Shown in pieces: positions 3,562-11,454 of a DNA stretch of 64,000 nucleotides; position 1 is the first letter of the stretch, and each line of letters opens with the position of its first letter. The stretch comes from Bacilli bacterium (GTDB lineage: Bacteria > Bacillota_I > Bacilli_A > RF39 > UBA660), in contig JAQUYH010000007.1 in the NCBI GenBank assembly GCA_028691955.1, forward strand, positions 745-64,744. Reading direction: 5' to 3'. The notes beneath the pieces are model-generated. The model was given only the letters and a program-made list of their open reading frames with translations, had not been told where the DNA came from and searched no databases. The translations under genes and the position numbers were made by a program.

Positions 3562-4230
3562 ATGAAAGAATCTAAAGAGAAAGAGTTGTTGTTTTTAGTT
3601 ATAATTTTTATTATTATTTTTGATGTGTCATTTATATTTAGCAATATAAGAAGTACTATATTTTACTCTGTTCTAATAGGAATTACAATAATATGCTTAG
3701 GGGCTATTTTCCATATAATAGTACAAGAGAGAATAAAGAAAGAAAAAGAAATAGAAACGCTTCTTTATTACGACAAAGTAACAAAATTGCCAAATAAAAA
3801 CAAGTTTTTAAATGATATTCCTAAAACAATAAAAAATAAAGAAAAATATGCTGTTATTGTCTTTGATATGCGTGATTTTAAAGAATTACTAGATGATATT
3901 GGGTTAACAGAAGTTAACAAATTTTTAAAAAATATTGCTAGTATCATCAAAAAAGAAACAAAGTCAAATGAACTATGTTCTAATATATCTGACGACCATT
4001 TCGCATTACTTTATGAGTATAAAAAAGAGTCTGATTTAGAAGATAGAATCAAATCAATAAATAAGCAAATTAAAGAATATGATATCAAACAAAAAATAAC
4101 TTTATCCTTTGGAATATATCCTATTACTGATAAAAGATTTTCATCAACCTTAATGTTTAATAAAGCATCACTTGCTAGAAAAGAAATAGTTGATAAAAAA
4201 AACATATTATTCAATTTTTATAAAAATTAA
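3562..4230 (+). CDS. Membrane-anchored degenerate GGDEF-domain protein (SDDHF in place of GGDEF)
   Basis: Two N-terminal TM helices. GGDEF-fold motifs are present: D-x-LT-x-LPN-x-x-F, ...VIVFDMRDF..., SDDHFALL at the active-site position, SFGIY, LMFNKASLARKE. Confidence 0.6.
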   Translation: MKESKEKELLFLVIIFIIIFDVSFIFSNIRSTIFYSVLIGITIICLGAIFHIIVQERIKKEKEIETLLYYDKVTKLPNKNKFLNDIPKTIKNKEKYAVIVFDMRDFKELLDDIGLTEVNKFLKNIASIIKKETKSNELCSNISDDHFALLYEYKKESDLEDRIKSINKQIKEYDIKQKITLSFGIYPITDKRFSSTLMFNKASLARKEIVDKKNILFNFYKN

Positions 4231-4236
4231 TAATTT

Positions 4237-4262
4237 AAGAATGAATTTCATTCTTTTTTTTG
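4237..4262 (+). terminator. Rho-independent terminator
   Basis: Hairpin AAGAATGAA-TTT-CATTCTT followed by T7. Confidence 0.7.
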
Positions 4263-4348
4263 TAAATATATATGACAAGTAGCCTTATAACATTTGTTAT
4301 ATATACATACTTATGTTATGATAATATAGTAGTAAGGATGGATAAAAG

Positions 4349-6990: not shown

Positions 6991-7164
6991 ATGGCTGAAA
7001 AAGTTGTAAGTTTTTTCAAATGGTTAGGCGAAGAGCTAAGTCCTATTTCTGATTTTTTCTGGAGTAATAGGCATAATGTCTTTTTATGGATAGGATTACT
7101 TCTATTAGGTTTATTAATATTTAAGCTAACCTATGATGCTCTAACTAGAGGTAGAGAGCAATGA
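6991..7164 (+). CDS. Small hypothetical membrane protein (57 aa)
   Basis: ATG 2 nt after the pcrA stop. A hydrophobic helix (WIGLLLLGLLIF). The TGA stop overlaps the ATG of the next gene (ATGA). Missing from the ORF track because it is under 60 aa. Confidence 0.35.
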   Translation: MAEKVVSFFKWLGEELSPISDFFWSNRHNVFLWIGLLLLGLLIFKLTYDALTRGREQ

Positions 7165-7586
7165 CAACAAATGAAGAAATATTAAAATTAATTAACGATA
7201 AGTTAGTTAAAATTCAAAGTAATGCATGGGGTATAGATAAAGATATAGAATTAAAGAAACAACAGCAAATTATAAAGATTGTTCAAAATTTTATTATAGT
7301 TGTTTCATTAATATTTCTAATATTGTTTTTAATTGATAATTTTAATACCAAATTATTAATAGCAACTATTATTAGCATTGCTATATTTATAATAGTTGCT
7401 GCCTATTTGGCAAGTTTAAAGGCAAAAGTAACACAAATGAGTAAATCAAAAAAAGATTTAGATCAAGAAGCTTTAATACTTCAAAGCGTTAGAAGCTATC
7501 TGCAAGGTAAAATAGCTTTAAATGAAGATATAAAAGAAGAACTAGACAAATTAAACAAAGAGGTGTTAGAATCATTTAATAGTTAA
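7161..7586 (+). CDS. Hypothetical membrane protein with a coiled-coil C-terminus
   Basis: Two TM segments and a RBS. No recognisable family. Confidence 0.5.
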   Translation: MTTNEEILKLINDKLVKIQSNAWGIDKDIELKKQQQIIKIVQNFIIVVSLIFLILFLIDNFNTKLLIATIISIAIFIIVAAYLASLKAKVTQMSKSKKDLDQEALILQSVRSYLQGKIALNEDIKEELDKLNKEVLESFNS

Positions 7587-8033: not shown

Positions 8034-8110
8034 GGGCGATTAGCTCAGTTGGTTAGAGCACCTGCCTTACAAGCAGGGGGTCGTAGGTTCGAGTCCTACA
8101 TCGCCCACCA
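8034..8110 (+). tRNA. tRNA-Val (anticodon TAC)
   Basis: Cloverleaf with GGGCGAT/ATCGCCC acceptor stem, loop CTTACAA, encoded CCA. Confidence 0.9.
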
Positions 8111-8119
8111 TTTATTTTT

Positions 8120-8195
<76 letters not shown>

Positions 8196-8202
8196 TTTTT
8201 AT

Positions 8203-8286
8203 GGAGGGATAGCGAAGTGGCCAAACGCGGCAGACTGTAAATCTGTTCCTTCGGGTTCGATGGTTCAAATCCATCTCCCTCCACCA
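8203..8286 (+). tRNA. tRNA-Tyr (anticodon GTA)
   Basis: Acceptor GGAGGGA/TCCCTCC, anticodon loop with GTA, long variable arm, encoded CCA. Confidence 0.85.
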
Positions 8287-8306
8287 TCTAAGTGTTGTGG
8301 AATAAT

Positions 8307-8381
8307 TGCCTCGTAGCCAAGCGGTAAGGCACCACACTTTGACTGTGGCATGCGCTAGTTCGAATCTAGCCGAGGCAGCCA
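8307..8381 (+). tRNA. tRNA-Gln (anticodon TTG)
   Basis: Acceptor TGCCTCG/CGAGGCA, loop CTTTGAC, encoded CCA. Confidence 0.85.
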
Positions 8382-8393
8382 TCTTATTTATAT

Positions 8394-8469
8394 GTTCCGT
8401 TAGCTCAGTCGGTAGAGCATTTGACTTTTAATCAAAGGGTCTGGAGTTCGAATCTCCAACGGGACACCA
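8394..8469 (+). tRNA. tRNA-Lys (anticodon TTT)
   Basis: Loop CTTTTAA, TΨC arm GGAGTTCGAATCTCC, encoded CCA. Confidence 0.9.
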
Positions 8470-8473
8470 TCGT

Positions 8474-8562
8474 GCCTGAGTGGCGGAATCGGTAGACGCA
8501 CAGGACTTAAAATCCTGCGAGGGTTAAACCTCATACCAGTTCAAGTCTGGTCCCAGGCACCA
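8474..8562 (+). tRNA. tRNA-Leu (anticodon TAA)
   Basis: Loop CTTAAAA, long variable arm, encoded CCA. One A-C mismatch in the acceptor stem. Confidence 0.8.
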
Positions 8563-8623
8563 TCTTTGTTAATTAATATACATAAGTATATTTTTTATAA
8601 TTTTAGCTATTAAATAGCTATGT

Positions 8624-8714
8624 GGAGAAATACCCAAGTCTGGTTGAAGGGACCGGTCTTGAAAACCGGGAGGTCGGCAACGGCGCGGGGGTTCGAATCC
8701 CTCTTTCTCCGCCA
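8624..8714 (+). tRNA. tRNA-Ser (anticodon TGA)
   Basis: Acceptor GGAGAAA/TTTCTCC, loop CTTGAAA, long variable arm, encoded CCA. Confidence 0.85.
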
Positions 8715-8732
8715 TTTAAGTTTTTTTGATAT

Positions 8733-8809
<77 letters not shown>

Positions 8810-8810
8810 T

Positions 8811-8886
8811 GGTCCCGTAGTGTAGCGGTTATCACGTCTGCCTGTCACGCAGAAGATCACCAGTTCGAACCTGGCCGGGACCGCCA
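8811..8886 (+). tRNA. tRNA-Asp (anticodon GTC)
   Basis: Acceptor GGTCCCG/CGGGACC, loop CTGTCAC, encoded CCA. Confidence 0.9.
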
Positions 8887-8894
8887 TTTTAATT

Positions 8895-8970
8895 GGCTCT
8901 GTAGCTCAGTCGGTAGAGCAAAGGACTGAAAATCCTTGTGTCGGTGGTTCGATTCCACTCGGAGCCACCA
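8895..8970 (+). tRNA. tRNA-Phe (anticodon GAA)
   Basis: Loop CTGAAAA, encoded CCA. Confidence 0.9.
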
Positions 8971-8991
8971 TTTAAATTATTAATCCAATTT

Positions 8992-9068
8992 GCGCCCTTA
9001 GCTCAATTGGATAGAGCGTTAGACTACGGATCTAAAGGCTAGGGGTTCGACTCCCTTAGGGCGCACCA
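8992..9068 (+). tRNA. tRNA-Arg (anticodon ACG)
   Basis: Acceptor GCGCCCT/AGGGCGC, loop CTACGGA, encoded CCA. Confidence 0.9.
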
Positions 9069-9089
9069 TTTTGATTATAAAAATTAATT

Positions 9090-9166
9090 CGGAAAATAGC
9101 ACAACTTGGTAGTGCACTTGGTTTGGGACCAAGGGGTTGCAGGTTCAAATCCTGTTTTTCCGACCA
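9090..9166 (+). tRNA. tRNA-Pro (anticodon TGG)
   Basis: Acceptor CGGAAAA/TTTTCCG, loop TTTGGGA, encoded CCA. Last tRNA of the array. Confidence 0.85.
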
Positions 9167-9203: not shown

Positions 9204-9319
9204 ATGCTTTCATTTTTTATTTTCTTATAATTATCTTAATAGTTTGAAGAATGAGGCTATTATCAAGTAATGAGCCTGCTACCGATTTAATCGGTGGGGC
9301 AGACTCAGCCTCTATAATT

Positions 9320-9348
9320 TGATACATTTGACACTCCTTTCTATGATA
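9320..9348 (+). promoter_or_regulatory. Promoter with extended -10 (TGATATAAT), preceded by palindrome ACCGATT-T-AATCGGT (9281-9295)
   Basis: TTGACA ... TGATATAAT about 25 nt upstream of the ATG at 9370. A perfect 7-bp inverted repeat lies about 30 nt further upstream. Confidence 0.4.
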
Positions 9349-9369: not shown

Positions 9370-9690
9370 ATGGTTGAATATTTATTTAATTCAAGTGGTG
9401 AATGGATTGCCTTTAAAAAAGGTGACTATCTATATAATAAAGATTGTGAGTGGATTGGATGGTTTCCTTGGGGTGATAATGATGCAGTCAATAATAGTGG
9501 AGAGTATCTTGGAACAATTTGTAAGGAGAATAGATTATATAGAAATCAATTTTCACCTTATAGAGGCTATCCCGGTTATCCTGGTTATCCTGGCTATCCT
9601 GGTTATCCTGGTTATCCTGGATTTGCAGGTCATTCATCATTACCATGGAATATGTATGATATTCCAAAAACATTTTTGAGGAGGCAGTAG
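9370..9690 (+). CDS. Small Trp-rich protein with C-terminal (GYP)n tandem repeat; unknown function
   Basis: A GGTGA RBS precedes the ATG. The protein contains EWIGWFPWGDND and GYPGYPGYPGYPGYPGYPGF. Its stop lies 1 nt before the next gene's ATG. The alternative overlapping frame (9359-9679) looks non-protein-like. Confidence 0.5.
   Translation: MVEYLFNSSGEWIAFKKGDYLYNKDCEWIGWFPWGDNDAVNNSGEYLGTICKENRLYRNQFSPYRGYPGYPGYPGYPGYPGYPGFAGHSSLPWNMYDIPKTFLRRQ
9566..9620 (+). repeat. About six tandem copies of the 9-bp unit GG(T/C)TATCC(T/C), in frame, encoding (GYP)n
   Basis: Direct reading: ggctatccc ggttatcct ggttatcct ggctatcct ggttatcct ggttatcct. Confidence 0.85.
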
Positions 9691-9691
9691 T

Positions 9692-10360
9692 ATGAGTCAA
9701 GATGAGTTAACTAAACACTCTAGGGCAATTTTAGATAGTGCAAAAGATACAATAAATTCTTTTTTTGAAATATACGATAATTCTAAGAAAAAGATTACTG
9801 AGCAAAATCAGGATCTATTGCGTGCGATAATACTTTTTTCTGGTTCAACAATAGATGCTATTATAAAAAAATTAATAAATGATACAATCCAGGAGGTAAT
9901 TGATAGAGATGATGGAGCAAATAGTGAATTTAAGGATTTTGTTAGTAAAACTATACAAGACAGTAAAAACATTATAAATTCAAAGTTATTATCTGAGTTG
10001 TTTGTTTGCAATAGTCCTAAAGAACAATTAATTATTGAATTGAAAAAAAATTTAACCCATAATAGCTTACAAAGTGCAGATGAAATTGCTAAAACTATTG
10101 GATATTTTGGAATTCCAACTAAAGAGTTGCCAATAAAAATTGATGAATTGAAAAGTTTGTTTATTGTTAGAAATAAAATTATGCATGAAATGGATGTGAA
10201 ATTGGACTCATCAACTTTTATAAGAAATGACAGGTCAAAAGTTGAGGCTAAAAAAATTTCAAATGAGCTTTTAAACTTATCAGAATGTTTGATAGATCTT
10301 GTTGAAAAGAAATTAAAACAACCACTCATTGAAGAAAGAGTTACATACCTGGTGATATAA
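9692..10360 (+). CDS. HEPN-like protein (R-x4-H motif RNKIMHE); candidate RNase toxin / Abi component
   Basis: A GGAGG RBS. 222 aa, predicted helical. The C-terminal region carries RNKIMH, matching the HEPN Rx4-6H signature. No other family was recognised by eye. Confidence 0.45.
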   Translation: MSQDELTKHSRAILDSAKDTINSFFEIYDNSKKKITEQNQDLLRAIILFSGSTIDAIIKKLINDTIQEVIDRDDGANSEFKDFVSKTIQDSKNIINSKLLSELFVCNSPKEQLIIELKKNLTHNSLQSADEIAKTIGYFGIPTKELPIKIDELKSLFIVRNKIMHEMDVKLDSSTFIRNDRSKVEAKKISNELLNLSECLIDLVEKKLKQPLIEERVTYLVI

Positions 10361-10420: not shown

Positions 10421-11332
10421 ATGAATGTTAATGATATTTTAGGCTTAGGGAAAATGACTGATAAGCTTTTAAATACAATTGGAAAAGGATTGGGATGGTA
10501 TTTAGAACCCAAGCAAATTATTAGAAAGGCAAAAGCCACAAAAAAGGCTTATGAACTATTACATGATGTTAAACAAAATCATAATTTTTTGGTTTCTGTA
10601 AAATCTGAAGATATTGCAGTTGAAGAAATTCTACCAGATATAAATCAAGGCCTAATTGAAAAAGAAATTATTCAAAATTATCAAGCTCTTGAAATAGTTG
10701 AAAAAGCATTAAGTATGATAGATATAAAACAACCTGTTTCAGATAAAGAAATAGATGAACAGTGGATTGATAGATACTTTGATAGTATCAAAAAAATCAC
10801 AAATGAAGAAGTAAAAGTAATTTGGGCAAAAATTTTGGCAGATACAGTCACTGAAAAAAAAGAATATTCAATTAGGACTCTTGATTTTCTTAGAAGCCTG
10901 TCTAATGCAGAAGCCTTGGTTTTCACTAAGTTAGAAGGTCTAGCATTTAAGCAAGGAAGAGAGCTTCTACTACCAAATTTTGAAGAATTTAACAATAAGT
11001 ATAGTATAAGAAAGCAAGATTTATGGCTTTTAGAGGAATTAGGTATATTAAAGGAGGGATTAATCTTGACGATTCCACAAGAAAAAGGAATTTATATATA
11101 TGAAAACAGTGTAGTCATTGTTTCTCCAAAAAATGGAAAAGACGAAAAATTAAATATATACAAGTTTACCAATATGGGTATCGAACTATACAACTTGCTT
11201 GGTGGTAACAGAAAAGTTAATATTAATGAATATTGCACCTTTGTTTTTAAAAGGAAAGGCGATGTTAAAGTAGGAAAAATAACAAGTATTTCTTATGATA
11301 TGGCTCATCATGAACCATTAATAGAAATTTGA
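10421..11332 (+). CDS. Hypothetical 303-aa protein, third gene of the island operon
   Basis: An AAGGAG RBS. Soluble, with no motif I recognise. Co-oriented with the HEPN-like gene. Confidence 0.5.
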   Translation: MNVNDILGLGKMTDKLLNTIGKGLGWYLEPKQIIRKAKATKKAYELLHDVKQNHNFLVSVKSEDIAVEEILPDINQGLIEKEIIQNYQALEIVEKALSMIDIKQPVSDKEIDEQWIDRYFDSIKKITNEEVKVIWAKILADTVTEKKEYSIRTLDFLRSLSNAEALVFTKLEGLAFKQGRELLLPNFEEFNNKYSIRKQDLWLLEELGILKEGLILTIPQEKGIYIYENSVVIVSPKNGKDEKLNIYKFTNMGIELYNLLGGNRKVNINEYCTFVFKRKGDVKVGKITSISYDMAHHEPLIEI

Positions 11333-11454
11333 TATAAGAATATTCTCTTAATATTCTCTTAAAATAAGAAATAAATAAGCAAAAAAGACTCTCTATGAAA
11401 ATAGAAAGCCTTTTAAAATAAAGATTAGAAAATTCTGGAATAAACAAATCTAGT

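Follow-up and report, generated by a model that had tools for sequence, protein, structure and literature searches.

The HEPN gene and its beta-flower partner

We analyzed two adjacent genes in a 64,000-nucleotide stretch of contig JAQUYH010000007.1 (hereafter the window) from a Bacilli bacterium of the RF39 lineage (assembly GCA_028691955.1). The downstream gene, at 9692..10360 on the plus strand, is an ATG-to-stop open reading frame (ORF) of 222 amino acids (aa) that codes for a predicted metal-independent RNase of the RiboL-PSP-HEPN family (PF18735) and is called here the HEPN gene. The upstream gene, at 9370..9690 on the same strand, codes for a 106-aa protein of the 4-fold beta-flower family (PF21784), referred to below as the partner. 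The stop codon of the partner gene (TAG, 9688-9690) and the ATG of the HEPN gene (9692) are separated by a gap of 1 nucleotide (nt), and the ribosome-binding site of the HEPN gene (GGAGG, 9680-9684, plus strand) lies 7 nt before this ATG, within the 3' end of the partner coding sequence.

An earlier sequence-only reading of the window had picked out the ORF at 9692-10360 (plus strand, 222 aa) by the motif RNKIMHE, and its coordinates, length and motif were all correct. The motif corresponds to residues 160-166 (codon of R160 at 10169-10171, codon of H165 at 10184-10186), and 57 residues separate it from the C-terminus. Its core, the Rx4H catalytic motif R160-N-K-I-M-H165 with a polar asparagine after the arginine (codons 10169..10186, plus strand), was both read directly and recognized by conservation. 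The broad pattern Rx4-6H occurred 32 times in the window, in 22 of the 71 ORFs of at least 100 aa, or approximately 0.37 times per 222 aa; since this is the level of chance, the bare pattern is no evidence for a HEPN domain. The narrower pattern RNxxxH was found among the same 71 ORFs in the HEPN ORF only. What raises the motif above chance is its conservation among homologues.

The protein matched the PF18735 profile (HEPN_RiboL-PSP) with an E-value of 3.5e-10 and 40.5 bits, above the curated gathering cut-off of 28.4 bits, and the match covered residues 18-205 and profile positions 7-190 of 191. Its second Pfam match, over the motif region, was another HEPN family, HEPN_Cthe2314. When 23 homologues (31-61% identity) were scanned singly against Pfam, 21 matched PF18735, and the recurrent secondary matches were HEPN_Cthe2314 (5 members) and HEPN_MAE_28990 (2 members), with no others. 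Residues R160, N161, I163, H165, E166 and D168 were invariant in these 23 proteins. To extend the comparison, we aligned 151 relatives, consisting of 148 representatives of 50%-identity clusters from a profile search plus P0001, P0003 and P0008. In the catalytic region, R160 was conserved in 149, N161 in 149, H165 in 151 and D168 in 151 of them; elsewhere, D55 was found in 150, K59 in 151, R44 in 148, S125 in 151 and Q127 in 151. Among 1.84 billion cluster representatives, the profile search, which was exhaustive, found 894 relatives with E <= 1e-3, of which 707 had E <= 1e-10. Nearly all the HEPN relatives among the matches listed were 220-250 aa long, and the HEPN proteins alone are spread over at least 10 phyla and hundreds of clusters at 50% identity. 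An identical protein is present in the NCBI nr database as "MAG: HEPN domain-containing protein [Bacilli bacterium]", so that the HEPN call had already been made by automated annotation.

In published HEPN proteins, the active site is an Rx4-6H motif with a polar residue (N, D or H) after the arginine (Anantharaman et al., 2013, PMC3710099). A second acidic residue is found in helix 2, usually as Ex3[K/R], and an insert separates helices 2 and 3 (PMC3710099). In the window family, the arginine is followed by a polar residue that is conserved family-wide (R160-N161-x3-H165). The second motif is present as D55-A-I-I-K59 in helix 2 (codons 9854..9868, plus strand), a version of Ex3[K/R] in which the acid is an aspartate rather than a glutamate. 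The AlphaFold2 model was all-helical, as had been proposed from the sequence (predicted local distance difference test, pLDDT, 89.5; predicted template-modelling score, pTM, 0.86). Helices were predicted at residues 8-30, 36-72 (containing D55x3K59), 74-137 (insert helices) and 150-164, followed by a loop and a last helix at 183-208. R160..H165 is placed at the end of core helix 3 (150-164) and the start of the loop leading to 183-208. The earlier placement of the motif in a C-terminal helix therefore stands loosely, the motif being near the C-terminus but at the end of the penultimate long helix and not in the last one. By secondary-structure order, the model agrees with the published description, with the motif where helix 3 ends and an insert between helices 2 and 3 (PMC3710099). 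Judged by the full-length PF18735 match above cut-off, the agreement of 21 of 23 homologues, the near-invariant R, N and H and the predicted helix order, the window ORF is a HEPN-domain protein with intact catalytic residues, and the assignment first made from the motif was correct.

The partner itself scored 21.9 bits against PF21784 ("4-fold beta flower"), below the cut-off of 25, and 31 of its 32 aligned close relatives matched this family. We recovered 389 homologues, 50-70% identical to it and distributed across phyla, many of which were pre-annotated as PF21784. In the AlphaFold2 model (pLDDT 92.7), seven to eight short strands are predicted within residues 2-59, in keeping with the four beta-hairpins of the family fold. 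They are followed by a tail encoded by a 9-bp tandem repeat (9565..9620, plus strand; 5.9 copies, 93% matches in the repeat search), which translates as GYPGYPGYPGYPGYPGYP, or (GYP)6, at residues 66-83; the (GYP)n region of the model is non-regular yet confidently predicted. The Gly-X-Pro triplet repeat also gave a weak match to the Pfam Collagen model. Since the GYP copy number varies from approximately 2 to 8 among homologues, repeat slippage may tune the length of this tail. No solved structure was similar to the partner model, in agreement with the paper that named the fold (PMC10584680), where it was described in 2023 from AlphaFold models alone and without a function. Another form was observed on the Streptomyces anulatus plasmid pYINM00001 (locus L113, 2674-3300), where a 208-aa protein annotated as '4-fold beta flower protein' is encoded between MobF relaxase genes; it apparently consists of two tandem beta-flower units, with PGL/GRP repeats replacing GYP.

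Conservation of the pairing across genomes

The genes directly upstream of two HEPN homologues, P0006 and P0013, encode proteins 62-67% identical to the window partner. We scanned genomes with the HEPN alignment as seed and examined the 16 loci recovered, which belong to Clostridia, Bacilli, Pseudomonadales, Pirellulales, Rhodospirillaceae, Arenicellales, Patescibacteria, Cyanobacteria, Actinomycetota, Hyphomonadaceae, Omnitrophota and others. A beta-flower gene was found immediately upstream and on the same strand in 13 of the 16, representing Clostridia, Bacilli, Gamma- and Alphaproteobacteria, Planctomycetota, Patescibacteria, Cyanobacteria and Omnitrophota. The three unpaired loci were two in which the contig ended upstream, leaving stubs of 845 nt and 175 nt, and one distant relative from Mycobacterium.

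The reverse comparison, on 80 metagenome loci seeded with the beta-flower alignment, showed a HEPN gene directly downstream in 38 and no HEPN gene within at least 650 nt in 28. These two groups make up the 66 assessable loci, the other 14 having too little downstream DNA (13 loci) or no beta-flower match (one locus). When the beta-flower proteins were clustered by sequence, the clade of the window partner contained 11 paired and 0 solo loci and the main clade 39 paired and 5 solo, so that 50 of the 55 assessable loci of these two clades were paired. An actinobacterial-type clade with a 3-residue insertion contained 1 paired and 11 solo loci, and the divergent forms without GYP repeats were all solo. 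Pairing thus follows the beta-flower lineage. Inspection of the ORFs downstream of the solo beta-flower genes gave no evident conserved alternative effector.

Overall, the pair is conserved across at least 10 phyla, and its spacing is tight. The distance from the partner stop to the HEPN start was between -8 and +11 nt in 43 of 53 distinct pairs from other organisms, often as an overlap of 1 or 4 nt. Overlaps of this size are typical of translational coupling, and the two genes form a translationally coupled two-gene operon. Full-text literature searches, in which most subscription journals were not covered, gave no description of a PF21784-PF18735 pairing; as far as we found, a systematic coupling of HEPN and beta-flower genes has not been described.

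In four loci (L016, L029, L031 and L087), the HEPN frame was split or truncated beside an intact partner gene. This arrangement fits a costly or toxic HEPN gene, and errors of metagenome sequencing or assembly are another possible cause. In one of them, from a Pyrinomonadaceae metagenome-assembled genome (L016, 4001-4879), the split HEPN gene is followed by an IS1595 transposase gene.

Surroundings of the pair and related defence cassettes

In the window, an array of 12 tRNA genes (Val, Thr, Tyr, Gln, Lys, Leu, Ser, Met, Asp, Phe, Arg, Pro; 8034-9166, plus strand) lies upstream of the pair, which begins approximately 200 nt after it; the HEPN gene begins 526 nt after the array. Arrays of tRNA genes are common integration sites. 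Neither an integrase nor direct repeats were found at the window array, and a compositional island test revealed no GC (guanine plus cytosine) break around 9.3-11.4 kb, the composition being like that of the surroundings. A candidate sigma-70-like promoter, TTGATA-17-TATGAT (10 of 12 positions; 9319..9347, plus strand), is located 22 nt before the partner gene; it is a consensus match only, in a region where the number of promoter-like sites was not above shuffled expectation. A weak hairpin (9296-9312) lies upstream of this candidate. The flanking genes are ordinary and encode a PcrA/UvrD helicase, an S1-domain protein, a DUF84 nucleoside triphosphatase (NTPase) and a metallophosphoesterase. 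Between the PcrA-like helicase gene and the S1-domain gene, at 6991-7586 (plus strand), are two small ORFs (57 and 141 aa) that overlap and contain hydrophobic stretches; the 141-aa one had no Pfam match. We also considered an RNA antitoxin or other non-coding RNA near the two genes and rejected it: Rfam gave only tRNAs, and the only tandem repeats were the GYP-coding one and one of 11 bp.

The next gene downstream, at 10421..11332 on the plus strand, encodes a 303-aa DUF2806 protein (PF10987; Pfam E = 3.4e-23, 83.1 bits against a cut-off of 24.5). It begins 60 nt after the HEPN gene, and no terminator-like site was found between the two. Downstream of the three genes, a terminator-like structure first appears at 11383..11414, as a hairpin with a 14-bp stem that was called on the minus strand. 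The short 11-bp tandem repeat (2.2 copies, 11339-11362) closely follows the DUF2806 gene. The DUF2806 gene was tried and rejected as a third member of the system, with no alignment to the corresponding neighbour in locus L001; DUF2806 falls outside the conserved module because each related locus examined has a different gene downstream. It is probably a separate defence gene.

This view of DUF2806 and the possible role of the partner both draw on a study of Vibrio cholerae integron cassettes by Darracq et al. (bioRxiv 10.1101/2024.07.02.601686), in which a PF21784 cassette and a DUF2806 cassette each protected against phage by experiment. The single-gene PF21784 cassette, Cernunnos, gave phage resistance in Vibrio and in E. 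coli, and the DUF2806 cassette, Belisama, gave phage resistance and was toxic, with unrecoverable lysis at high multiplicity of infection (bioRxiv 10.1101/2024.07.02.601686). Cernunnos was recovered again in an independent screen (2026 preprint). The window DUF2806 gene resembles Belisama by the shared domain family PF10987 only. Because a gene with the Belisama domain adjoins the HEPN gene, the region 9.3-11.4 kb may be a small defence islet that holds two independent systems, beta-flower/HEPN and DUF2806. The partner shares the Pfam family PF21784 with Cernunnos and differs from it in arrangement, as Cernunnos is a single-gene system whereas the window beta-flower gene is coupled to a HEPN gene. 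A further likeness to the Cernunnos cassette is that partner homologues in another Vibrio, present as solo genes, sit in integron-like cassette arrays. In Vibrio metschnikovii (L011 and L012, approximately 4001-4321), a solo beta-flower/(GYP)n gene is not followed by a HEPN gene, and its surroundings look like a cassette array of a chromosomal integron, containing numerous very short ORFs as well as a Y1 transposase gene and the pairs ParE/Phd and TacA/acetyltransferase. With the V. metschnikovii protein as seed, a search returned proteins of V. metschnikovii and V. parahaemolyticus and none of V. cholerae among the best 120 of 307 matches, and E. coli genomes gave no match to the window partner at the DNA level.

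In Firmicutes relatives (L001, L007, L009, L115 and L117), the pair has different flanks in each case. In L001 it is found between or beside type I restriction-modification (R-M) genes and an OLD-family ATPase-TOPRIM gene. In L007 it follows type I R-M genes and precedes a helix-turn-helix (HTH)-Fic gene and a Gabija-like ATPase-TOPRIM plus UvrD set. In L115 it comes directly after a large serine recombinase gene, and in L117 it adjoins a tyrosine integrase gene and type I R-M genes. The Clostridia locus L007 (6827-10243) carries, directly downstream of the pair, HTH-Fic and then AAA_15/TOPRIM and a UvrD-like helicase (Gabija-like); L009 (1473-4272), from the same Clostridia lineage, carries HTH-Fic and then an AbiA reverse transcriptase with a HEPN_AbiA C-terminal domain. 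Since the cargo after HTH-Fic differs between the two, the same pair is embedded in swapping defence cargo. Among 148 neighbour ORFs within approximately 2 kb of 50 distinct pairs, DNA methylases, components of type I, IIG and III R-M systems, nucleases, integrases, Fic and AAA_21 proteins were recurrent.

Candidate function of the pair and rival explanations

The sequence-only reading had likened the HEPN protein to AbiV, AbiU2 and AbiD/F; this likeness did not hold, as no such model matched at E <= 1 in Pfam, NCBIfam or PADLOC. A PADLOC match to PDC-M01B (E = 0.0018) was rejected as partial. AbiV of Lactococcus (bioRxiv 10.1101/2024.05.05.592566, PDB 9bj6/9bj7) is nevertheless similar in plan, being a small stand-alone HEPN protein and proposed toxic RNase in a two-part abortive-infection (Abi) system of adjacent genes. 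It differs in its antitoxin, which is an RNA, whereas the partner of the window HEPN is a conserved protein; in the canonical motif histidine, typically absent in AbiV (PMC3710099) and invariant in the window subfamily; and in the lack of an AbiV match in Pfam or PADLOC, with a Foldseek template-modelling (TM) score of approximately 0.2 to the AbiV chains. The HEPN-MNT type II/VII toxin-antitoxin pairs are alike in having a HEPN RNase toxin beside a small protein partner in an overlapping operon. In contrast to these, the window has no nucleotidyltransferase domain in the gene upstream or downstream of HEPN, and the partner fold, all-beta, is unrelated. The closest family is RiboL-PSP-HEPN itself, whose definition rested on endoRNase L-PSP fusions and on operons that include ParB, and which was called a distant relative of AbiD/AbiF (PMC3710099). 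The window protein resembles it in the full-profile match, the Rx4H motif with a polar residue after the arginine and the acidic-x3-basic helix 2 (PF18735, PMC3710099). It differs in context, as the window protein is single-domain and its neighbours are beta-flower and DUF2806 instead of an L-PSP fusion or a ParB operon. Compared to the described members, the window subfamily is thus a stand-alone protein of approximately 220 aa with beta-flower as its constant neighbour.

We lean towards the explanation that the pair is a mobile two-gene module of the abortive-infection or toxin-antitoxin-like type, with the HEPN RNase as effector and the beta-flower protein controlling it or sensing. From the features described above we infer RNase activity and toxicity for the HEPN protein, a sensing or inhibiting role for the partner, and a role in phage defence. 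The spread across phyla and the variable flanks would reflect a horizontally mobile module. As the effector, the HEPN protein would cut cellular or phage RNA through a metal-independent R/H mechanism and arrest growth, presumably in the dimeric form that other HEPN RNases take. The predicted active site would comprise R160, N161 and H165, with D55 and K59 nearby. The beta-flower protein may restrain the HEPN protein, sense the trigger, or both.

Several results weigh against this explanation. Most of the 148 neighbour ORFs are diverse ordinary genes; the signal of defence and mobile-element genes is genuine though modest, and outside Firmicutes the defence-island signal is a modest one. Neither the HEPN nor the beta-flower protein was found in 50,697 phage genomes, and on plasmids both were rare, with a handful of distant matches. 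The PADLOC and NCBIfam scans gave no convincing match for either protein, and the link of the window partner to Cernunnos holds at the level of a shared Pfam family only. Structural comparison of the HEPN model gave no confirmation either way: Foldseek found no significant match in the PDB (best E = 0.45; AbiV chains at the TM score given above) and, in BFVD, a single borderline match to an uncharacterised phage protein and no significant HEPN. Sequence and profile searches of the PDB with the HEPN protein also gave no HEPN match. Finally, approximately 40% of the beta-flower loci are without HEPN and Cernunnos works with one gene alone, which means that the partner is more than a plain antitoxin.

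These solo genes lead to the strongest rival, in which defence is primarily the task of the beta-flower protein, sufficient by itself, and HEPN is an added effector or amplifier rather than a neutralised toxin. The beta-flower protein is the more conserved of the two (50-70% against 31-61% identity); it occurs alone in 28 of 66 assessable loci, including the integron-like arrays of V. metschnikovii; a PF21784 cassette protects against phage by itself (Cernunnos); and intact partners persist beside broken HEPN genes. We nevertheless consider this rival unlikely. In the clade of the window and the main clade, pairing is close to the rule, as given above, and the closely overlapping genes suggest that the two proteins are made together in stoichiometric amounts, as toxins and antitoxins are. 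The solo beta-flower forms belong mostly to separate sequence clades and therefore may work differently.

The module may instead be a selfish type II toxin-antitoxin pair, stabilising mobile elements by addiction and playing no part in phage defence. The overlapping two-gene architecture with a small upstream protein would suit such a pair, as would the patchy cross-phylum distribution, the adjoining recombinases and integrases and the tRNA array beside the pair in the window. Against it, the upstream protein is predicted as a beta-barrel-like flower with a GYP tail, which would not be the DNA-binding fold typical of type II antitoxins. The pair is also rare on plasmids, and in Firmicutes it often has R-M and Abi genes beside it. 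We regard this rival as improbable, more so than the previous one.

A housekeeping RNA-processing enzyme (for example for transcripts from the 12-tRNA cluster) or a HEPN protein that binds a ligand without catalysis, suggested by the short distance to the tRNA array, the matching base composition and the ordinary flanks (PcrA helicase, S1-domain protein, DUF84 NTPase), is very improbable, since the tRNA adjacency is absent from all related loci examined, the family is sporadic with flanks that differ among all loci examined, as expected for transferred genes, and the near-invariant R, N and H make a non-catalytic role unlikely.

Returning to the mobile two-gene module that we favour, the HEPN call by itself is routine, and the value of the locus lies in the beta-flower partner. 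It is a tentative proposal that the beta-flower/(GYP)n protein and the RiboL-PSP-type HEPN RNase constitute an undescribed, widely transferred two-gene anti-phage system, in which the beta-flower protein could represent a novel type of protein that serves a HEPN RNase as sensor or inhibitor. In the window, two or three genes of defence type (beta-flower, HEPN and DUF2806) make up a small islet beside a tRNA array, and the pair adds a candidate two-gene system to the repertoire of HEPN-based abortive-infection and toxin-antitoxin systems. The conserved pairing with a HEPN RNase whose predicted catalytic residues are intact gives the beta-flower fold a concrete, testable biochemical partner. If the proposal is true, this would offer a first grip on the mechanism of a fold for which structure prediction and one single-gene defence cassette are so far the only sources.

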